From assembly GCA_016930515.1 (NCBI GenBank), contig JAFGGO010000022.1, positions 1 through 52,014 on the forward strand: 52,014 nt of DNA, read 5' to 3'. The notes below the pieces were generated by a model. It was given only the letters and a program-made list of their open reading frames with translations, was not told the origin of the DNA and searched no databases. Below, one piece after another: positions 9,890 to 24,113 of this stretch. This stretch comes from Promethearchaeota archaeon. GTDB lineage: Archaea > Asgardarchaeota > Lokiarchaeia > Sigyniarchaeales > SOKP01. Both the position numbers and the translations under genes were made by a program. Numbering within the stretch: the first letter of the stretch is position 1; every line of letters starts with the position of its first letter.

Positions 9890-11626
9890 ATTCTAAGACA
9901 AGTATACATTTACAAGGGACAGGATCTCATTTACAGAAGACAATTTGGAAAAGCCATTAAGGACGAGTCTTTTACGACTTTATTTGCAGAAATTAGAGAA
10001 ATGGGTTTTGGGAGGGGTTCGGAAGACGAGGTACTAAAGTTTCATGACTACTTCAAGTTTAAGGTCTCTTACATTACCGATAAACAAAAGGACTTGCTAA
10101 TCATATTTGTGACTGGTCTAAGCGATAGCTTTGATTACATAAAAAAAGAATTAAAAAAATGTAAGAAAGATTTTTTAAATCTATTTGGAGATATCTTAGA
10201 ACAAGAATGTGACGCTAAAACATTTAATGTTTTTGATCCTTCCGTTGATGCAATGCATAGAAATTTAAAGCCTAAAATCTCTCTTTGCGGATTTTCGGGG
10301 GTTGGAAAAACAACAACGACTAGACTAATAAAAGCCGAAGAAATTCCAATGCAACACGTGCCAACCATTACGGGAGACATTGCCACTATCAAGATTGGAA
10401 AGCTACAATTTAGTTTATGGGACTTTGCTGGACAGGAACAGTTCAGCTATCTTTGGACAAATTTCGTTAAAGGTAGCGATGCAATACTCTTAATCACGGA
10501 CTCAACAATAGAGAATGTCGAGAAAAGCAAGTTCTTTTTGGAACTCATAAAAGAACAAGCCCCAAACGCACATACTGCTGTTATCGCTAATAAGCAAGAT
10601 CTAGAGGGTGCAATGCCTCCCACGCAAATTGAAAAAGTAATCGGCTTGAAAGCATATTCGATGATTGCAAATAGAGAAGAAAATCGGGAGAAAATGATAC
10701 AAATCATAGCGGATGTGTTAGAGATGAACGCTGATGTGTCGCCACTCTTAAAACCATTACGAGAACGGGATCAAATAATGGAAAAAGCGAAAAACGCTCT
10801 AGAACTTGGCAATTTACAAGATGCAGCGGAACTTTTTGAGAGAATTAGTGATTTCTGTATTGAAATGGGAGACGATACGCTCGGGAAAGAATTCTTTGAA
10901 AAAGCAAGTAAAATAAAAGGGATGTTAAAAACACCTACAACAATTTCGCCTGAACCAACAGAAATAGCGAAAGAAACGACAACCAAAGGATCGATAGAAG
11001 AAAAAGCTCAAGAAACCCCTTCTCCAGAAGAACCACAAATAAAACCCTCTAAAGTTGAAATAGAAGATACTTCGGGAGGGGAAGAAGTTCTTAATGAACC
11101 CGGAATAATGTTAAATCCCGAAGATTTTATGGTAAAAGAAACTCCAAAACAAGTAACTAGCGTTCCAAAAGACGCAAAAAATAAACTGAAGACATCTGCT
11201 TTTGGGGAAGTTAAAAATCCGACTCAAATGGAGCGGGAACAACGTCAAACAGAAGATAAATCCGTTCCAATAAAACCCCCTGATAAAAGCGAAATTGCTT
11301 CAGAAATAGCTCTCGATACGGAGGGAATTGTAAAAGAAGAATCAAAACTTGAGAAAGCTTTAGAAGAATCTCCAGAAACAACCAATGCACCAAAAGAATC
11401 GGTTACAGTAAAAATATCTGACTCTGTTCAAAGGAAGGAGCTTGAAAAAACTTTAACAGACCTTAAAATAAAGAAGGCTAACATCTCAAAAATGACATTG
11501 GATTTCGAAATGAAAGAATTAATGGGTGAAATAACTACCGAAGAGTACAAGGAAAAATTAGAAAAACTAAAAGTTGTTGAGAAAAAAATTAATGAGGAAA
11601 TCGACAATATCGAAAAAATGCTTTAA
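9890..11626 (+). CDS. Longin-like domain fused to an Arf-like small GTPase, with a helical unit, low-complexity linker and C-terminal coiled coil; probable ATT start
   Basis: G1 GFSGVGKT, G2 PTI, G3 WDFAGQ, G4 NKQD; frame open from 9884 encoding ILRQVYIYKGQDLIYRRQFGK, with SD AGGTGA at 9878-9883. Confidence 0.8.
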   Translation: MLRQVYIYKGQDLIYRRQFGKAIKDESFTTLFAEIREMGFGRGSEDEVLKFHDYFKFKVSYITDKQKDLLIIFVTGLSDSFDYIKKELKKCKKDFLNLFGDILEQECDAKTFNVFDPSVDAMHRNLKPKISLCGFSGVGKTTTTRLIKAEEIPMQHVPTITGDIATIKIGKLQFSLWDFAGQEQFSYLWTNFVKGSDAILLITDSTIENVEKSKFFLELIKEQAPNAHTAVIANKQDLEGAMPPTQIEKVIGLKAYSMIANREENREKMIQIIADVLEMNADVSPLLKPLRERDQIMEKAKNALELGNLQDAAELFERISDFCIEMGDDTLGKEFFEKASKIKGMLKTPTTISPEPTEIAKETTTKGSIEEKAQETPSPEEPQIKPSKVEIEDTSGGEEVLNEPGIMLNPEDFMVKETPKQVTSVPKDAKNKLKTSAFGEVKNPTQMEREQRQTEDKSVPIKPPDKSEIASEIALDTEGIVKEESKLEKALEESPETTNAPKESVTVKISDSVQRKELEKTLTDLKIKKANISKMTLDFEMKELMGEITTEEYKEKLEKLKVVEKKINEEIDNIEKML

Positions 11627-15942: not shown

Positions 15943-16659
15943 TTGAATAAAGCGGTGAAATTTGTGTCTGAAAAGGAAATAAGCAAGAATTTAAGAAATA
16001 AGTTGAGGAAGTTAAAAAAAATAATATATATGGCGGGTTATATAGATTTTAATGTCATTATACTGTTTATCCTGTTAATATTCATAGATTGGATATGTGG
16101 TGTTACTTTACTATTAGATTTAATACGAATCTTTATTTATTTATTGATTTTAATAAGCGCGTGTTTTTTTGGTATTATTGGTGGAAAATATCTCTCTCTA
16201 AAGAATATGTATCTGAGATCTAATTCGGAAAACAATCAAAAAGGCATGTTAGAAGATGAAAACATACAACTTCGAGAAAAAAAGATCCATAACTCAAAGA
16301 ATCTAGCACGAATAATTGGATTGATTGATCTATCAATGATCATCGTATATATAATCGTTGCGATTGAGTTATTTTCGGGGAATTATATATTCGGGGTCAT
16401 GCTAAGTCTTTATGTTGACGTACCTATATTTTTACTTCTTCTATTGAATAGTATAATCTTGGGGGGGAGGTATTTTTATTTTAGGAAAAAACTAACTATA
16501 ATGAAATTGGGTGCAGCAAAAACAGAAGAATCGTTCCAACAAGCAAGCGCTATAGATGCGCCCAAAATGAAAAAATGCTTTAATTGTGACGCTTCCATAG
16601 AAATGGCTGCACAATTCTGCGATCAATGTGGAGCAGAACAGATAAGGCAAATTCCATAA
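15943..16659 (+). CDS. 4-TM membrane protein (duplicated 2-TM unit) with C-terminal zinc ribbon
   Basis: Two similar halves (GYIDF...GGKY / GLIDL...GGRY) and CFNC...FCDQCG; start codon uncertain. Confidence 0.75.
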   Translation: MNKAVKFVSEKEISKNLRNKLRKLKKIIYMAGYIDFNVIILFILLIFIDWICGVTLLLDLIRIFIYLLILISACFFGIIGGKYLSLKNMYLRSNSENNQKGMLEDENIQLREKKIHNSKNLARIIGLIDLSMIIVYIIVAIELFSGNYIFGVMLSLYVDVPIFLLLLLNSIILGGRYFYFRKKLTIMKLGAAKTEESFQQASAIDAPKMKKCFNCDASIEMAAQFCDQCGAEQIRQIP

Positions 16660-16758: not shown

Positions 16759-16892
16759 TGAAGATAATTAAATCTCAAGTACTGTAAGAATTACCCAGAT
16801 TCATTTATATATCAACAATTATAATCACTACACAAGGAGTCCTAAAGATTTCTATTAAGAAATCGTAAAAAATTATTGGATATTCGAAAAAA
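16759..16892. repeat. Imperfect direct repeat, copy 2
   Basis: Aligns by eye with 15791-15922. Confidence 0.85.
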
Positions 16893-17205
16893 TAAACGCA
16901 GATATTGTGTTTTTATAGCATTAATAATTTCACATTTAAGTGGTAATGGGTGTTTTGAGGGGGTATTAAATATTTTTTTCATCATTCCATTGATTTTTGT
17001 CAATATATGCTTGCTTTCGATTCAAGAAGGAAGATATTCGGTTACCAAGAATAAATACATTCTATTTCAAATGAAGCAAAATGCGATAGAGAATGAAAGA
17101 TCGGAACCTTTTCAATTAAAAGAGATATTAATAAAAAAAATTATGTTTATCAACTCAAATAATATTTTTTTATTGAGTATTTCCAATTATCTTTTTAATT
17201 TTTAA
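16876..17205 (+). pseudogene. Probable decayed paralog of the 15943-16659 gene
   Basis: Follows the duplicated upstream region; IFFIIPLIFVNICLLSIQEGRYSVTKNKY resembles IFIYLLILISACFFGIIGGKYLSLKNMY; no zinc ribbon. Confidence 0.5.
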
Positions 17206-17404: not shown

Positions 17405-20400
17405 ATGAATACGAACCTTGAAAAGGCTGAAAATGCAATTAAATACTTTGAATTAGCCGAAAAATTCGAAGAATCAAAAGATTGGGAAAAGGCTATCGAG
17501 AATTACGAATTAGGTGTCGAGAACCTCAAGCAAAGCGGATATTTGTCCGAGCGTGTTGAAGAAATATATTCGAGAATCGCCGAATTAAACAACATTATAA
17601 GCAGGAAAAAGCAAATTCAACTCGAAAAAACTCAAGATTATAAGGATAAATTAGAGGGCGAAGCTTACGCCTTGTTAGATGGTGCGAAAAAACTGGAGTC
17701 TGAAGGTTTTCTTCAAGACGCAATCAAGCAATACATGACGGCCGTCACGGCTTTTATTAAAGTTGGATGGACCGAACAACAACTCGAATCGATTCAAACC
17801 AAAATGCTTGCTCTTGCAGAAGTCGTGGATAATCGACGTGAAAGCGAGGCTCAACAACAACAAGCTGCATCGCAAATAATTCATCCCACCTTGCTCACGC
17901 CACATTTTCAAGCAGGATCTGGAGTTTTTGAAGGAGGGGTCAAGAGGATAGAAACTGTTAAAAAATTTGAGGATAAAAAGAAAAAAGAACAGGAAATCCA
18001 GGACGAATCCTTTACTCACTTAGATAAAGCTCGCGATCTCGAACAAAGAGGAGAATTCGATCAAGCAATCCAATCGTACGAATTAGCTATCAAGCTATTA
18101 GATTCAATTGGATGGGTTGATCAGACGAAAAACCTTCGTGTTGCCGTGCAAAAGATCCAGCAGAAAAAATTAGATTCAGAGAGATTTAAAACGCAAAAAA
18201 TGCCTTCCTTGGATAGTGAGACCCCCAAAACCAAGATATCTACTGAGATTCAAGAAAGCGACAAGGGAGATAGAATAAGAAAATATCAAGAATTGAAAAA
18301 AAAAGAGCAAGCAATACAAACACAAGCCTTTAACTTCTTAGAATCTGGTAATAGGCTTGAAAGAAATGGAAATTACGAGGAAGCAATAAGTCAGTTTGAA
18401 AAAGCCGTAGAATTGTTTCAATCAATCGAATGGCATTCATACATTCAACCCATCTTGAACTTCATCGATAATGTGAAAGAAAAACACCAAAATGAGCTTC
18501 AAGCGATTGAGATTGGCAAGAAAAGGCAACAAGACCTAAAGCAGTTGCAGGACAGCATTTACCTGAAAAATAAAGAGCAGTTTGTTCAATCAACTCAAGC
18601 ATTACAAGAGAAAAGACAGAAATTTTTGGAAAAGAGAAGGGCTCAATTGCAAAAAGAACAGGAATTTTTTACCTTGGTAAACAAGGCCGATGAAACTCTT
18701 CAAAACGCCGCAAACTTGGACCTCGCACTTCATGCCTATCAGCAAGCATTGGATTTAATTAAAGATCTAGGCTCGGGATGGGAAACTCAAGTCATTACCA
18801 TACAAAATACGATAGATCACGTGCAAAAACTCAAAGAATCACAAGAGCTCAAGCTCCTTAAAGAAAAGCAAAAGATCGAAGAACAAAAGCGCGAGGAACT
18901 TGAGTTTCAAAGGCAAATTGCAGAGCAATTGGAAAAAGAAAGAAATAGGCTTCGAGAGAAAGAACTTGTTTTCAAGGAAAAACAGGAAGACTTGCAATAT
19001 CTTCAAAAAAAGAAGGAAGAAGCCTTCAAATTTCTTGATACTGCTCAGATTTATACGAGAAAAGAAGACTTAGATAAAGCTATTCACGCATATCAAAATG
19101 CGGCAATGTTATTCGGTGAAATCCATTGGTCAGAGGAGATTCCGCTTATTGAAAATTCCATAACTGAACTTGAAAGAAGGAAGAAAGAAAAACAACTTGC
19201 AAAGCAAAGAGAACTCCAAAAAGAGCTGGAACGAAAAAAGCAAGAAAAGGCATTACAAGACGAAATTTCAAATCAATTGGAGCTCGAACGACAAAAAATA
19301 AGAGAAAAAAGAATCTTCTTAAAAGAGAGGGAAGATCAGTTGGCATTTCAAGAAAAAAAAAGGGAAGAAGCCTTCAAATTTCTTGATCGAGCTAATCAAT
19401 TGTTAAATGAAAGCATGTTTGAGGCTGCTATTGAAGAATATCATTCCGCAGCAAACATTTTTGCACAAATAAACTGGAGTGACGAGGTTAACTCGATCCA
19501 GAACGCCATAATAGAAATCGAGAATAAAAAGCGCGAGAAAAACTTGAGTGAGCTAAAAAATATACAACAAAAACTTGAAAAACAAAAAGAAGAGCGTGAA
19601 TTTCAAGCGTTTTTATCGAACCAAGCTAATATTGAAAAAGAGAAATTAAAAAAGAAAACCCTTATTCTCCGAGAAAGAGAGCAAGAATTACTTTTTCGCG
19701 AGAAAAAGAAGGAAGAAGCCTTCAAATTTCTTGATCGAGCTCAAAAACATATTATCGAAGGACAGTTTCAAGAAGCAATAGATATATATAATAATGTCGT
19801 AAATATTTTTGCTTTAATACAGTGGGACGACGAGATAGTCCATTTAAAAAACGCAATTAAAGAAATCGAGGTAAAAAGATATCAAAAGGAATTAGCGGTC
19901 CAACAAAAACATCAATTAGAATTAAAACAAGAAATTGAATACGACAATTTTGTTGAGACTATTAAGTCCTTAAAATTCAAGCAAGAAACAAGACAAAATG
20001 TTCAGAGAGAAGCTTTAATCAAAGAATCTAAAAATGCTGCTCAAATCCAAGCAAAACAAGATCAAGCTTTTAACATCATGGCGGAAGCGGAACTCCTCCT
20101 CAAACAAAAAAGTTTTGATAAATCCATTGAAAAATATAAGACTGCAATTGATCTTCTGAAGAGCATCGGTTGGTCGGAGCCTTATCTTAAAACATTGCAC
20201 GATGGGATTAACCTAATTGCAATAAAAAAGGATCAATACCAAAAAGAAAAACAACGCGACCTGGAGCTTGAAAAAGCTAGAAAGGACGAAGAATTCCTTT
20301 TTCAACTTAAAATTTCGGATCAAATGTTAAGTGAACAAGAAAAATACAAGACCAAGGCGATTGAATTAAAGAAAAAGGAAGTTCTCTTAAAAGAAATGGA

Positions 20401-22372
20401 AAAAAAGCGCTTAGAATCTTTTAACTTGCTAGATGAGGCAGAAATGCTTCTAAACCAAGGGAAATACGAAGAATCAATCGATTTATACAAGCAAGCAGAA
20501 TTATATTTAAGCGAAATTCAATTTCCTACGGATTCTATTAAAGAAACGATCCAAAAAGTACGGAACAAACAAAAGGAAGACGAATTAAGGAGGATTAAAA
20601 CCGAAGAACAAGCTTTAAGGTCCCAACAAGAGGAAGCCATGTTTCAAAGAACTCTCGTGGAAAAGATGGAATCAGATAAGCTCAAGATGATCAAACGAAA
20701 GAAATCAATAAGAGAACAAGAAGAAATAAGTGCTTTAATGGAAAATAAAAAAAGAAAGGCTTTCGACATGTTAGACGATGCGGAAAACTTCACGAAACAA
20801 GCCTATTACGACAAGGCATTTCAATATTATCGTTGCGCCGAACTTGCTCTAAACGAGATTCATTTTCCTACCGATTCGCTCAGAGAAGTTATTGATAAAG
20901 TTAAACAGATGAAGAATGATGCCGAAAATTTAGAGAAACGAAAACTAGAAGAACAACTTAAGCAGCAGCAAGTTGAACTTGAATATCAAGATAAGATCCT
21001 AGAAAGCACGAAAAAAGAACAAGCAAGGCTTCGTTTTAAAGAATTAAAACTTCGTAAAATGGAAGAAATCAAACAGTCGTTCGAAACTCGGAGAAAGAAT
21101 GCCTTTGAAATACTCGATCAGGCAGAATCAATGCTCCGCAAGAACGAATATGATGGCGCAATTGGGGCATATAGGAAAGCCAGTATCATTTTAAACGAAA
21201 TTAACTTCCCCACCGATTCAATTAAAGAAGCAATTGTAAAAGTTACCAAACTCAAAAAAGCAAAAGAGTTGCGAGAAGAACGAGAGCTTAAGGCTGAACT
21301 TGAACGATTAGACGAAGATAAGCAACTTAAAACAATCATTGAAAAAAGACAAAAAGAAGAACAAAAGAAGAAGATCGCCCAAAAACAAGCCTTAGAAGAG
21401 CGAGAGCGGATGATTCAGGAAAAGGCAAGTCATCGGGAGGTCGCGTATCAACTTCTTGATAAAGCTTCCAAGCACTTAAAAGGCTTAATGCCCGATTACG
21501 ACGCCGCTATCTCTTTATACGCTCAAGCTCGAACAATCCTTACCGAAAATGTTGGTTGGGAGCCAGAAATTAAGCACATTACCGAATTAATAAAGGATCT
21601 CCAAAAAGAAAAAACTAAAATGATCCAGAGAAAGCAACTGGAAGAACAGGCTCAAATAAAAAGACAAAAAGAATACGAGGCGTTTCAAGAAGAGATTCGG
21701 AAAAGACAACTCCTCTTGGAACAGCAAAAACAAGAACAAGAGAAAAACTATCAAGAAATCGTTCAAAAGCGACAAAATTACGATCAATTAAGAGAACAAG
21801 GCTTAAAACTCATTGAAGAGGGTAAAAAATTTGCTTCAAATTACAATTTTTCAAAGGCGTACCAACTATTCGAAGGAGCAATACATAAATTCAAGCAGAT
21901 TGGATGGAACGATGAAATAAGCTATATCCAAACCGAGATTAAGAATACTAGAGCATTAGAATCTAAGATTGAAAGTGAACGACGAAACATGGAAGAACTT
22001 CGGAATGCGGTAAAAATAAAAAAAGAACATGAAAAACAGCAGATAGCAGAACAAGACAAGATTAAAGAAGTTGCTGTGGGAGAAGTTGGAAAAATAACAA
22101 ACCAAGTAACTCAGATGATCGAGCACCAGAAAAAACTTGAATTAGAACGAGCCCAACAAGAACGGGAACGAATTAAAAACGAGGCAAAGGATTTCAGAAC
22201 TAAAATGGGTTCGATGATTCGACTCAAGCAGGATCTCCTATCGGAAATGGAAAAAACAAAAGATCTAGAGCAACAAACAATAAAAAATTTAGAAAAAAAG
22301 AAGGAACAAGAGCACGTGAACGATATTGCTAAAATGATTAAAGAAGCGGCTAAAAAGAAAAAGGAGGATTAA
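17405..22372 (+). CDS. Giant repeat protein: about 14 MIT/TPR-like helical units joined by E/K/R/Q-rich long helices
   Basis: Recurring AF.xLDxA....x.x.AI..Y..A...(F/L)..I.(W/F) unit, ~116-aa period in the central part. Confidence 0.85.
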   Translation: MNTNLEKAENAIKYFELAEKFEESKDWEKAIENYELGVENLKQSGYLSERVEEIYSRIAELNNIISRKKQIQLEKTQDYKDKLEGEAYALLDGAKKLESEGFLQDAIKQYMTAVTAFIKVGWTEQQLESIQTKMLALAEVVDNRRESEAQQQQAASQIIHPTLLTPHFQAGSGVFEGGVKRIETVKKFEDKKKKEQEIQDESFTHLDKARDLEQRGEFDQAIQSYELAIKLLDSIGWVDQTKNLRVAVQKIQQKKLDSERFKTQKMPSLDSETPKTKISTEIQESDKGDRIRKYQELKKKEQAIQTQAFNFLESGNRLERNGNYEEAISQFEKAVELFQSIEWHSYIQPILNFIDNVKEKHQNELQAIEIGKKRQQDLKQLQDSIYLKNKEQFVQSTQALQEKRQKFLEKRRAQLQKEQEFFTLVNKADETLQNAANLDLALHAYQQALDLIKDLGSGWETQVITIQNTIDHVQKLKESQELKLLKEKQKIEEQKREELEFQRQIAEQLEKERNRLREKELVFKEKQEDLQYLQKKKEEAFKFLDTAQIYTRKEDLDKAIHAYQNAAMLFGEIHWSEEIPLIENSITELERRKKEKQLAKQRELQKELERKKQEKALQDEISNQLELERQKIREKRIFLKEREDQLAFQEKKREEAFKFLDRANQLLNESMFEAAIEEYHSAANIFAQINWSDEVNSIQNAIIEIENKKREKNLSELKNIQQKLEKQKEEREFQAFLSNQANIEKEKLKKKTLILREREQELLFREKKKEEAFKFLDRAQKHIIEGQFQEAIDIYNNVVNIFALIQWDDEIVHLKNAIKEIEVKRYQKELAVQQKHQLELKQEIEYDNFVETIKSLKFKQETRQNVQREALIKESKNAAQIQAKQDQAFNIMAEAELLLKQKSFDKSIEKYKTAIDLLKSIGWSEPYLKTLHDGINLIAIKKDQYQKEKQRDLELEKARKDEEFLFQLKISDQMLSEQEKYKTKAIELKKKEVLLKEMEKKRLESFNLLDEAEMLLNQGKYEESIDLYKQAELYLSEIQFPTDSIKETIQKVRNKQKEDELRRIKTEEQALRSQQEEAMFQRTLVEKMESDKLKMIKRKKSIREQEEISALMENKKRKAFDMLDDAENFTKQAYYDKAFQYYRCAELALNEIHFPTDSLREVIDKVKQMKNDAENLEKRKLEEQLKQQQVELEYQDKILESTKKEQARLRFKELKLRKMEEIKQSFETRRKNAFEILDQAESMLRKNEYDGAIGAYRKASIILNEINFPTDSIKEAIVKVTKLKKAKELREERELKAELERLDEDKQLKTIIEKRQKEEQKKKIAQKQALEERERMIQEKASHREVAYQLLDKASKHLKGLMPDYDAAISLYAQARTILTENVGWEPEIKHITELIKDLQKEKTKMIQRKQLEEQAQIKRQKEYEAFQEEIRKRQLLLEQQKQEQEKNYQEIVQKRQNYDQLREQGLKLIEEGKKFASNYNFSKAYQLFEGAIHKFKQIGWNDEISYIQTEIKNTRALESKIESERRNMEELRNAVKIKKEHEKQQIAEQDKIKEVAVGEVGKITNQVTQMIEHQKKLELERAQQERERIKNEAKDFRTKMGSMIRLKQDLLSEMEKTKDLEQQTIKNLEKKKEQEHVNDIAKMIKEAAKKKKED
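19015..19735. repeat. Three identical 25-nt blocks spaced 348 nt apart inside the giant gene
   Basis: GGAAGAAGCCTTCAAATTTCTTGAT at 19015, 19363 and 19711. Confidence 0.9.
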
Positions 22373-22520
22373 ATCGTCAATTTTCGATTCTCTAAATTTT
22401 GAACATCATTTTTTATTTTTTATCTTACTGTAAAAATCTTATACGACTTTTCCTGACTAAAAGGATTTAAATTTTAATGAAAGAATTACTAATATAACAC
22501 TAAAAATTCGAGTAAAAAAT

Positions 22521-24113
22521 ATGGTAGAAAACAACGATCAAATTTTTAAATCTCGGATGTTTGCAAGACAGCAACTCATCGAAGGTTGGGACCAACAAGT
22601 TCTCGAAGACGCTTGCGTGCTTATCATTGGAGTTGGTGCCCTGGGGTGTGAGATAGCCAAGGATTTCGCCTTGATGGGTATTGGCAAACTCGTTTTGGTC
22701 GACTTGGATACGGTTGAGACTTCGAATCTCTCGCGTCAAATGCTCTTTCGGGCAGGAGATGAGGGGAGACCAAAAGCAGAAGTAGCTGCTCAACGACTTA
22801 AAGAAATGAACCCGTATTTGAAGGTTGAATATCACTTTGAGAAATTACAAAAACTTCCAATGTCAGTTTACGAGGAAGCAGATGTTGTCATTGCGGCGCT
22901 GGACAATTTTAACGCTCGTTTGGATCTGAATAAGATTTGTCTCAATATGAAAAAACCCATGATTGAGGGTGGAACGGTAGGTTTTGAAGGACACATTCAA
23001 ATCGTCATTCCAAAGGGCGCTGGTATCGCTTATAAGGATAAAGAGCTTGAAATTGATAAGATCGTTGAGACCGAGCTGTGGTATTTAGACGAGGAAGAAT
23101 ATCCCGAATATTTTGAAGCCGAACGAATGATAGGTGAATTGGAAGAAAAGATCGAAAAATTAAGGGAGAACATCGTAAGACCTATTATCTCGAAAATACG
23201 CTCTCGAGTTGAGGAAGAATTCGACGAAAAACACGCGCCAGAATTGTTAGACCAAACACCTTGTTATCGGTGCGTTGTTCCAATCCCCCCCCCTGATGAC
23301 AAGCTTGTTGCGGCGTGTACATTAAAGGGTTTACCGCGGAATAGGAACCATTGCGTGATAAAAGCAGAAGTGGATTACGAAAAAATTCACGGAAAGAAGC
23401 CTGACCTGACGGTTGACGATCAAGTCGTTGAATTGAAAAAATTGGCCCAAGAACAGTTAGAGCAGCTAAGAGAACGCGTTTTTAAGGAAAATGTTGCTGA
23501 AGAAAAAATGACTGAAATGAGCCCGGAAGAAATACAAGAATGGAAGAATAATATTAAAGAAACCTTCGGTCCAGATTACAAGTTCGAGGAAATGGAAAAT
23601 ATTTTGGGAAACAAGATCGCAGCTATTCAATCGGTAAGTTCCATAATCTCCAGCTTGGAAACCCAAGAAGCCTTGAAAATCCTATTCCGAGTCAAGGGGA
23701 GGGACATCGGACCGCCCATGGATCCTCCATATTTAAATTATAATGGCGTATATGGGTTATTCGAAGGATTAAATATTACTAAAAGAGACGATTGCTTGGC
23801 TTGTGGCAATATAAAAGGAGAGGAAAATGTTCAGATAGTGCTTGAATTTAACGCAAACATCGCAAAAATTTTTTGGGCTTTGAAACAAATCGAAATTCCA
23901 TTGAATCAGGACGAATGGATGATTATTAATCCAGTTACCAAGGAGATTTATTGGGATCCCAATTCAAACAATCCGATTTTTAAGGATTTGAGCGTCCCTC
24001 TTCAAGCAGAATTGAAACTCAGGAATAACGATACCGTCACCTTAACTCCCGTGGGAAATGCTAGGTTAGATTCGGAAATAAAGAAATACAATGTTGTTAT
24101 CCAGTTTATGTGA
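22521..24113 (+). CDS. Ubiquitin-like activating enzyme E1 (ThiF family, UBA3/UBA2-like)
   Basis: GVGALG, DLDTVETSNLSRQMLF, ALDNFNAR, CYRC and CLAC zinc site, catalytic-Cys motif ACTLKGLPRNRNHC. Confidence 0.9.
   Translation: MVENNDQIFKSRMFARQQLIEGWDQQVLEDACVLIIGVGALGCEIAKDFALMGIGKLVLVDLDTVETSNLSRQMLFRAGDEGRPKAEVAAQRLKEMNPYLKVEYHFEKLQKLPMSVYEEADVVIAALDNFNARLDLNKICLNMKKPMIEGGTVGFEGHIQIVIPKGAGIAYKDKELEIDKIVETELWYLDEEEYPEYFEAERMIGELEEKIEKLRENIVRPIISKIRSRVEEEFDEKHAPELLDQTPCYRCVVPIPPPDDKLVAACTLKGLPRNRNHCVIKAEVDYEKIHGKKPDLTVDDQVVELKKLAQEQLEQLRERVFKENVAEEKMTEMSPEEIQEWKNNIKETFGPDYKFEEMENILGNKIAAIQSVSSIISSLETQEALKILFRVKGRDIGPPMDPPYLNYNGVYGLFEGLNITKRDDCLACGNIKGEENVQIVLEFNANIAKIFWALKQIEIPLNQDEWMIINPVTKEIYWDPNSNNPIFKDLSVPLQAELKLRNNDTVTLTPVGNARLDSEIKKYNVVIQFM

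Follow-up and report, generated by a model that had tools for sequence, protein, structure and literature searches.

What kind of protein results when many small helical bundles are placed at almost constant distances along highly charged helices, and what could such a protein do in an archaeal cell? This question is raised by a gene (17405..22372, forward strand) in a stretch of 52,014 nucleotides, in the following called the window, which comprises positions 1 to 52,014 of contig JAFGGO010000022.1 (assembly GCA_016930515.1) from a Promethearchaeota archaeon of the order Sigyniarchaeales (Lokiarchaeia). The gene encodes 1655 amino acids (aa) plus stop; its product is referred to here as the rod protein. 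It is considered to be a cytoplasmic structural scaffold or spacer which depends on register, a reading held with somewhat less than even confidence. According to this proposal, a semi-rigid beaded rod would be formed by eleven MIT-like knobs (units 4–14) on unbroken, ER/K-rich helices of ~90 residues, with a flexible head of three knobs before it and a conserved basic tail after it. The rod protein recurs in most of the genomes sampled from a single Lokiarchaeial family and bears on the largely open matter of how the unusual cell shapes and the internal organisation of these archaea are built.

Repeat Units and Their Spacing

The open reading frame (ORF; ~35% G+C) codes for a 190-kDa protein, with relatives of up to ~340 kDa. 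From its sequence the protein is cytoplasmic and all-helical; no signal peptide or transmembrane segment was found, the highest Kyte-Doolittle mean over 19 residues being 0.72. When a profile built from 13 units was searched against the rod protein, 14 units were counted, at residues 7–64, 79–147, 193–261, 299–367 and 416–483 (units 1–5), 531–599, 648–715, 764–831, 880–948 and 996–1062 (units 6–10), and 1111–1175, 1224–1290, 1338–1409 and 1457–1525 (units 11–14). Unit 1 was recovered with an E-value of 1.4e-6 though it had been left out of profile building. Units 6 and 8 aligned with 43% identity over 77 aa (BLASTP, E 1e-17), and units far apart, such as 3 and 13, aligned weakly (E 0.03). Judging from this recovery and from the strong near and weak distant alignments, the repeat is taken to be real, old and diverged.

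An initial annotation of the locus had described 14 units of about 36 aa. The count was found again; the 36 aa represent helices A and B alone, and the full bundle, including the third helix, was observed to take up ~60–66 aa, with ~50 aa of free linker and a period of 113–119 aa from unit 4 onwards. Similarly, the proposed unit ending I-x-W/F is present in most units (regular-expression scan: 120, 235, 341, 573, 689, 805, 921, 1038, 1152, 1266, 1383 and 1499), with variants in unit 1 (SGY), units 2 and 13 (VGW) and unit 5 (LGSGW; G-S-G-W at 455–458).

The chain can be divided into head, rod and tail. In the head, units 1 and 2 (17423..17845, forward strand, as for all following parts of the gene) are closely paired in tandem at a distance of 76 aa; unit 3 together with both of its flanking linkers (residues 148–192 and 262–298; 17846..18298) makes up the flexible part. 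Linkers 2→3 and 3→4 hold 6 and 3 prolines or glycines, respectively, and the corresponding spacings vary by species (89–118 and 89–114 aa); the region of units 1–4 would thus represent a flexible head with three knobs ahead of units 4–14. The rod proper (residues 299–1525; 18299..21979) has distances between unit starts of 113, 119, 116, 116, 116, 117, 114, 114, 114 and 119 aa, which are residue-identical in nearly all orthologues at 35–46% sequence identity, the second value being 118 or 119. Charged separators of ~60 aa, which had been assumed throughout the protein, therefore exist among units 4–14; they are missing between units 1 and 2, and linkers 2→3 and 3→4, with their prolines and glycines and their variable lengths, do not fit the description. 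The C-terminal tail (residues 1526–1655; 21980..22369) consists of 130 residues without a unit, has a length of 126–136 aa in full-length relatives and contains conserved motifs. Its extreme end (22310..22369), of the form D-x-I/L-K-K-M-I/L-K-E-x-x-K-K-K-K, is conserved, basic and amphipathic; there are few large hydrophobic residues in this helix.

Predicted Fold

AlphaFold2 was used for a four-unit model (residues 520–990, 75 orthologous rows) and for a model of a single knob, unit 7 with short flanks (residues 638–728; 19318..19588; 148 rows). The four-unit model, with a mean predicted local distance difference test (pLDDT) score of 81.8, contained helices at its positions 2–33, 37–53, 60–149, 153–169, 173–265, 269–285, 289–381, 385–402 and 406–470. 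Helix C of one unit was predicted to continue through the linker into helix A of the following unit, giving one helix of 90–93 residues, and only the middle helix of 17 residues folds back. The single knob was modelled as a three-helix bundle (helices 2–31, 35–51 and 55–90; pLDDT 82.7).

A Foldseek search of the Protein Data Bank (PDB) with the knob returned MIT domains as all of the top ten matches, with template modelling (TM) scores of 0.41–0.69 and best root mean square deviations (rmsd) of 2.0–2.5 Å over 67–79 columns. NRBF2 (4zey) was the top match (TM 0.59/0.64, rmsd 2.5 Å); CdvC from S. solfataricus (2w2u) gave a TM score of 0.68 and an rmsd of 2.0 Å, and MITD1, VPS4A and VPS4B were next. 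With VIA-align the MIT domains of CdvC (Z 9.2, rmsd 1.9 Å) and calpain-7 (Z 9.0, rmsd 1.7 Å) were matched, within a range of Z 8–10 that was obtained for many three-helix arrangements. Solved TPR arrays superposed on the knob only at rmsd values of ~10–11 Å (Foldseek). Global Foldseek matches to the whole four-unit model were meaningless (rmsd 30–78 Å), and a phmmer search with a 241-aa piece against PDB sequences yielded nothing relevant.

Both models agree with discrete three-helix bundles, as had been suggested originally, and their nearest solved folds are MIT domains. A TPR solenoid is not compatible with the presence of one hairpin per 113–119 aa, with helices of ~90 residues in between, nor with the poor superposition of TPR arrays. 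Since the bundles are discrete and the charged stretches were modelled as unbroken helices, the predicted connectivity is that of an extended beaded rod, in agreement with the initial annotation. At 1.5 Å per residue the free helix would measure about 7.5 nm and the pitch about 11 nm, so that units 4–14 would have a contour of about 110 nm and the entire chain, head and tail included, one of at most about 150 nm; these figures are estimates from residue counts.

Linkers between the Knobs

Linkers 5→6 to 13→14 contain no proline or glycine. In the 116-aa repeats of the family, linkers are composed of E (20%), K (17%), Q (11.5%), R (9%), L (9.5%) and I (8%), with E+K+R amounting to 46%, and opposite charges exceed like charges by a factor of 1.75 at i+3 and of 1.89 at i+4. 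Occupancy of heptad positions a and d, in the best phase, was 0.35–0.46 in nine of the ten long helices (z −0.5 to 1.6 compared with shuffled sequences) and ranged from 0.35 to 0.56 across all ten, with a z of 4.4 for the last one. Because their occupancy is like that of shuffled sequence, nine of the ten long helices would not be canonical coiled coils.

The family repeats contain a patch in the linker, acidic-acidic-x-x-F-Q-x-x-I, which is located exactly 30 residues before the start of the next unit in the period classes of 114–119 aa (frequencies: F 0.57–0.97, Q 0.51–0.80, I 0.44–0.74). In the rod protein its aromatic position is occupied by F501, L617, F733, F849, F966, F1080, Y1194, L1308 and F1427; an example is E-E-R-E-F-Q-A-F-L around F733 (19589..19615). 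In the monomer model the patch is exposed on the free helix, at an estimated ~5 nm from the nearest bundle, and it is therefore a candidate contact site. Charges alternate along the chain: among 977 family repeats the mean net charge was −3.8 for knobs (87% negative) and +3.2 for linkers (81% positive).

The charged stretches had been regarded as single alpha helices. This is in line with the unbroken helices of the AlphaFold2 model, the ER/K composition, the opposite charges at i and i+4, and the lack of prolines, glycines and significant heptads. The linkers are, however, probably not plain ER/K single alpha helices, because of the conserved aromatic patch and a content of 19–29% hydrophobic residues; the latter exceeds what would be expected for a typical single alpha helix.

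Conservation and Distribution

A word-indexed search revealed 87 relatives, with 33–46% identity in all but three distant matches (23–25%). Named relatives were without exception hypothetical or "TPR" proteins from metagenome-assembled genomes of Promethearchaeota, Lokiarchaeota, Hodarchaeota or Hermodarchaeota. A HMMER scan of 1.84 billion cluster representatives yielded 147 matches; no eukaryotic sequence relative was identified, the matches of this wide search carrying no names. In a survey of 301 genomes across the phylum (E ≤ 1e-15), the rod region was observed in 58 of the 68 genomes which represent the GTDB family of the window and in none of 232 genomes from 29 other families, including the sister family of the same order.

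Full-length relatives fall into length classes of ~1640–1670, 2113–2140, 2312–2351, 2462 and 2927 aa, equivalent to 14, 18, 20 and 21 counted units and, by length, ~25 units for the longest. From these classes, growth appears to be by whole blocks of units. In 18-unit forms the extra block has spacings of 116, 116, 117 and 114 aa, which according to best-match mapping represents a duplication of units 7–10; in 20-unit forms a longer block is duplicated. Knobs were 0.60 identical between orthologues and 0.23 between paralogues, and the values for linkers were 0.48 and 0.14, respectively. Every unit would thus keep its own identity, and conservation appears to be position-specific.

The same genome contains a second, more diverged rod paralogue of 1257 aa (G000:C168:27449-31240, reverse strand, equal to L013:7947-11720, reverse strand), for which the unit profile indicated at least 8 units (E 2e-43). 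It adjoins genes for a GNAT protein and a replication factor C, not E1 or ESCRT genes. In P0179, a distant metagenomic relative of 781 aa, N-terminal rod modules are fused to a Ras-like GTPase domain at residues 554–696 (E 6.5e-26 against the Ras-like protein of the window). In the Arf-like GTPase gene of the window (10001–11626) no unit was detected with the unit profile (E ≤ 1e-3).

Proposed Function

In the proposed mechanism the helices would set both distance and angle between successive knobs, and knobs and linkers together would offer many weak, position-specific docking sites. The protein would work only in register with a periodic partner, which could be further copies of itself or another regular array, such as a filament, a lattice or an assembly attached to a membrane. 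It would be a scaffold, spacer or ruler rather than an enzyme or a free flexible tether. Residue-exact spacing, position-specific conservation, the register of the patch, the alternation of charge and the growth by blocks, taken together, argue for in-register binding at multiple sites to such a partner; a free flexible tether is hard to fit, because a length change of a single residue would not matter there. The anatomy of the repeat, its conservation, the predicted fold and connectivity and the taxonomic range rest on the observations described above; the stiffness of the rod, its register-dependent binding and the identity of any ligand are inferred. The rod would very likely bear load or set distances within some regular assembly. 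Its importance is limited in two respects, as it was found in a single family-level lineage and no sequence relative in eukaryotes was identified.

Several observations weigh against this proposal. The residue-exact spacing could reflect constraints of folding instead of binding in register. The persistence length of an isolated ER/K helix is only ~15–20 nm, hence a free molecule of this length would be a worm-like chain rather than a stiff rod. The four-unit model has a predicted TM score (pTM) of 0.31, which is so low that its overall straightness is not predicted, and linker 8→9 has a pLDDT of ~50–65. The hydrophobic content of the linkers would allow the helices to pair or pack in ways beyond the monomer model. 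Foldseek E-values for the knob were weak (0.03–0.16), as is to be expected of such a small fold, and the Z values of 8–10 from VIA-align are common for any three-helix arrangement and not discriminating.

One version of the proposal, which we regard as unlikely, assumes that the ligand of the knobs is the rod itself, each acidic knob being docked to a basic linker in an adjacent copy. The acidic-F-Q-x-x-I patch would then be an internal docking site resembling a MIT-interacting motif (MIM) helix, and a half-staggered zipper would lead to bundles or sheets with a banding of ~11 nm or 5.5 nm. Such docking would explain the exact spacing, the patch register, the charge alternation, the separate conservation of knobs and linkers, and the block growth; if true, the rod would represent a new kind of archaeal cytoskeletal or membrane-skeleton polymer. 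A complex prediction with two copies of residues 619–849 (75-row alignment) returned "no answer", with a score of 0.00 in both runs, which counts neither for nor against pairing.

Relationship to MIT Domains at the Sequence Level

The whole rod protein reached 68.5 bits with the Pfam MIT profile (PF04212; cut-off 30 bits), a score obtained by summing seven stretches. Ten of the 14 units were scanned singly: six gave matches below the threshold and none reached 30 bits, the best being unit 1 with 26.4 bits. Most of these matches span profile positions 2–39 of 66, which correspond to the TPR-like hairpin of helices 1 and 2; by comparison, the MIT domain of the Vps4 from this genome matched positions 3–66 with 52 bits. 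The unit profile matched the MIT domain of VPS4A at positions 8–46 (E 6e-5) and consensus TPR very well over 23 residues, and the Pfam families TPR_1, TPR_2, TPR_11 and TPR_12 passed their cut-offs for the whole rod protein. With hhalign, the knob profile and the Vps4 MIT domain of this genome were related with a probability of 35% over 26 columns. The knobs thus combine an MIT fold with a hairpin of the TPR/MIT type; homology to MIT domains of the ESCRT-binding kind can be called no more than tentative.

Spectrin repeats (PF00435) had no match in the rod protein at E ≤ 1. The PUB domain (PF09409) was considered and rejected: matches were present in 7 of 65 distant relatives, and in the three which were checked they were partial hairpins below the cut-off (25–34 bits versus 34.3; positions 30–66 of 82), with no single stretch significant. 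In the rod protein (P0001) PUB had no match at E ≤ 1.

Alternative Explanations

Because the dimeric coiled coil is an architectural alternative which overlaps with the others, the likelihoods given here for other explanations need not sum to one. In such a coiled coil the long helices would pair, parallel or antiparallel, to form a two-chain rope with paired knobs. The hydrophobic share of the linkers would be accounted for, and consensus hydrophobic positions 87, 91, 95, 102, 109 and 116 lie near one heptad stripe; yet the heptad test distinguished only the last long helix from shuffled sequence, the charge pattern favours salt bridges within a helix, and AlphaFold2 modelled the helices unpaired at a pLDDT of ~90, so that this arrangement is given a rather small chance. 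A tether of the golgin/EEA1 type under the control of small GTPases would be anchored on a membrane by its basic tail and would capture a target with the knobs of the head, the rod setting the reach. This function would be suited by the flexibility of the head and by a C-terminus that is conserved, basic and amphipathic, Ras-like and Arf-like GTPase genes occur near the rod gene in three loci, and the single fusion P0179, in which rod modules are joined to a Ras-like domain, hints at a link to small GTPases. Genes for small GTPases are very numerous in Asgard genomes, however, and their proximity means little; those near the rod vary in strand and distance between loci. Moreover, a tether leaves the exact spacing, the mid-linker patch and the position-specific knobs unexplained, and the C-terminal helix is poor in large hydrophobic residues; we therefore think it decidedly unlikely.

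The initial annotation had pointed to MIT domains as binders of ESCRT-III MIM motifs and had suggested a multivalent scaffold, ruler or tether for membrane remodelling or cytoskeletal assemblies. As a multivalent scaffold of this type, the rod would bind MIM helices with its knobs and would bundle, measure or recruit ESCRT-III polymers in membrane remodelling or division. The passing of the Pfam MIT cut-off by the summed score speaks for such a role, as do the best fold matches of the knob, several of which bind ESCRT-III tails (CdvC, VPS4A/B, MITD1, calpain-7), and the two ESCRT-III proteins of the genome, whose C-terminal helices were judged MIM-like by eye. Binding of ESCRT-III tails by the MIT domain of an Asgard Vps4 has been measured by isothermal titration calorimetry (PMC7240154). 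On the other hand, no unit scanned singly reached the cut-off and most matches end at position 39, the similarity to the genome's own Vps4 MIT by hhalign is weak, and a common ligand groove is not evident, because paralogous knobs share just 23% identity. MIT-like bundles also bind helices outside the ESCRT system, as does that of NRBF2, the top fold match (PMC12758336), and the ESCRT-III and Vps4 genes are situated on contigs C85 and C76, away from the rod gene. Moreover, Vps4 and ESCRT-III are found throughout the Asgard archaea, whereas the rod was seen in a single GTDB family. The ESCRT-III function was not borne out by these data and is judged quite improbable. We would assign the same low probability to a scaffolding role in the ubiquitin-like conjugation system encoded next to it, whose downstream E1 and E2 would use the rod as a platform or a substrate or would be organised by it in the manner of an E3. 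The order rod–E1 is kept in 38 of 43 family genomes, and genes for a HAD protein and the E2 come after the E1. All these genomes belong to one family, though, and the order may be inherited; obligatory co-transcription of rod and E1 is unlikely because of oligo-T runs and an A/T-rich box in the spacer and a peptidase gene of opposite strand lying between them in one locus. The E1 of the sister family (52% identity) has no rod upstream, the second rod paralogue is not near ubiquitin genes, and the PUB matches in relatives are partial and below the cut-off.

Comparison with Known Proteins

The knobs share the antiparallel three-helix bundle, a similar size and the TPR-like motif G-x-(Y/F)-D-x-A-I-x-x-Y in helices 1 and 2 with MIT domains (PF04212; Vps4/CdvC, NRBF2, MITD1, spartin, calpain-7, Vta1/LIP5), and calpain-7 and Vta1 have a close tandem MIT pair, like units 1 and 2. 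The differences are the scores of single units, below the Pfam cut-off in all scanned cases, a mostly unmatched helix 3, the extension of helices 1 and 3 into helices of ~90 residues which join the bundles, and the absence of a catalytic or other attached domain. Known MIT proteins contain one or two MIT copies per chain, each of about 70–80 residues, compared with 14 copies here.

Rods made of spectrin repeats (PF00435; spectrin, alpha-actinin, dystrophin) are likewise built from three-helix bundles in tandem, the last helix of each running on into the first helix of its successor, as was predicted by AlphaFold2 for the rod protein; their repeats have their own identity and their length changes by whole repeats. 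The spectrin repeat has a period of ~106 aa and is in its entirety a bundle, made of three helices of ~30 residues. In the rod protein, with its period of 113–119 aa, a bundle takes up only ~20 residues of each long helix plus a middle helix of 17 residues, and a free single helix of ~50 residues per repeat is left outside. Actin-binding or EF-hand end domains are absent, and PF00435 is not matched, as stated above.

Spacers of the ER/K single alpha helix type resemble the linkers in being rich in E, K, R and Q, free of proline and glycine, with opposite charges at i+3 and i+4 and without heptads, and in that the linkers, too, are predicted as isolated helices which would set a distance; the KER helix of CAF-1, a single alpha helix of 128 Å, functions as a spacer (PMC10335832). 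In contrast to these, the linkers of the rod contain 19–29% hydrophobic residues and an aromatic patch in fixed register, are continuous with bundles at both ends, and are 48% identical among orthologues, where conservation of composition alone would generally be expected. TPR arrays, whose 34-residue helix-turn-helix repeats follow one another directly and stack into a superhelix, are similar insofar as a stretch of 23 residues in each unit fits the consensus TPR; with one hairpin per ~115 aa, stacking into a solenoid cannot take place.

No paper was found in the literature which describes the rod family or MIT-like bundles threaded on single long helices. New are the division into head, rod and tail, the residue-exact spacing, the mapping of duplicated blocks, the heptad test, the F-Q patch in fixed register, the charge alternation, the comparison of orthologous and paralogous identity, and the comparison with E1 neighbourhoods of the sister family.

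Genomic Neighbourhood

The window is AT-rich (~31–42% G+C) and contains genes for Ras-like and Arf-like GTPases, an E1-like ThiF protein and an E2; eukaryote-type genes of such kinds are typical of Asgard archaea. The gene for the ThiF/E1-like protein (22521..24113, forward strand) is the conserved downstream neighbour of the rod gene and starts after a spacer of 148 bp (22373-22520). Two oligo-T runs (22409..22421, forward strand) follow the stop codon, and an A/T-rich box (22465-22478) is located ~45–55 nt before the E1 start; judging from these elements, transcription of the E1 gene is probably driven by a separate promoter and independent of that of the rod gene.

Positions of rod and E1 genes across genomes were compared by hand. 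In 38 of the 43 family genomes containing both, they are on the same contig and the same strand with E1 downstream; in the other five they are split across contigs. One locus has a peptidase gene on the opposite strand between them. A linkage outside the family was considered and rejected, as the genes upstream of the sister-family E1 orthologues are unrelated (an ABC-permease-like gene, an unannotated ORF of 666 aa without Pfam match and a Ras-like gene): no rod gene precedes the E1, although its alignment covers almost the entire length, and a six-frame scan there with the unit profile revealed no units. E1 is thus treated here as a conserved neighbour rather than as a functional partner. 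In one genome of the sister family (G213) a DDE transposase gene (L010:12219-13625, reverse strand) lies near the E1 orthologue, and the gene order there is disturbed.

In the genome from which the window was taken, genes for Vps4 (L004 2-1159, reverse strand) and a Vps2/24/46-like ESCRT-III protein (L004 1414-2052, forward strand) are divergent neighbours on contig C85. A second ESCRT-III gene (L005 1393-2043, reverse strand), whose product has a proline-rich stretch before the C-terminal helix, is alone on contig C76. No genomic link between the rod and ESCRT genes was seen.

Just upstream of the rod gene two small ORFs are present on the forward strand: the first (15943-16659; 238 aa) has a zinc ribbon at its C-terminus, and the second (16876-17205; 109 aa) has no Pfam match. 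Neither was seen in the two further loci that were inspected; there, the upstream gene is RACo-like and lies on the opposite strand. The E1 orthologue of one genus contains, in each of its four genomes, two in-frame stops (TAA/TAG) and is otherwise full-length, with 65–69% identity (G019:C52:6396-8012, G030:C178:459-2057, G117:C712:151-1761, G159:C108:8382-9983); this could be due to a split gene, an insertion, recoding or decay.

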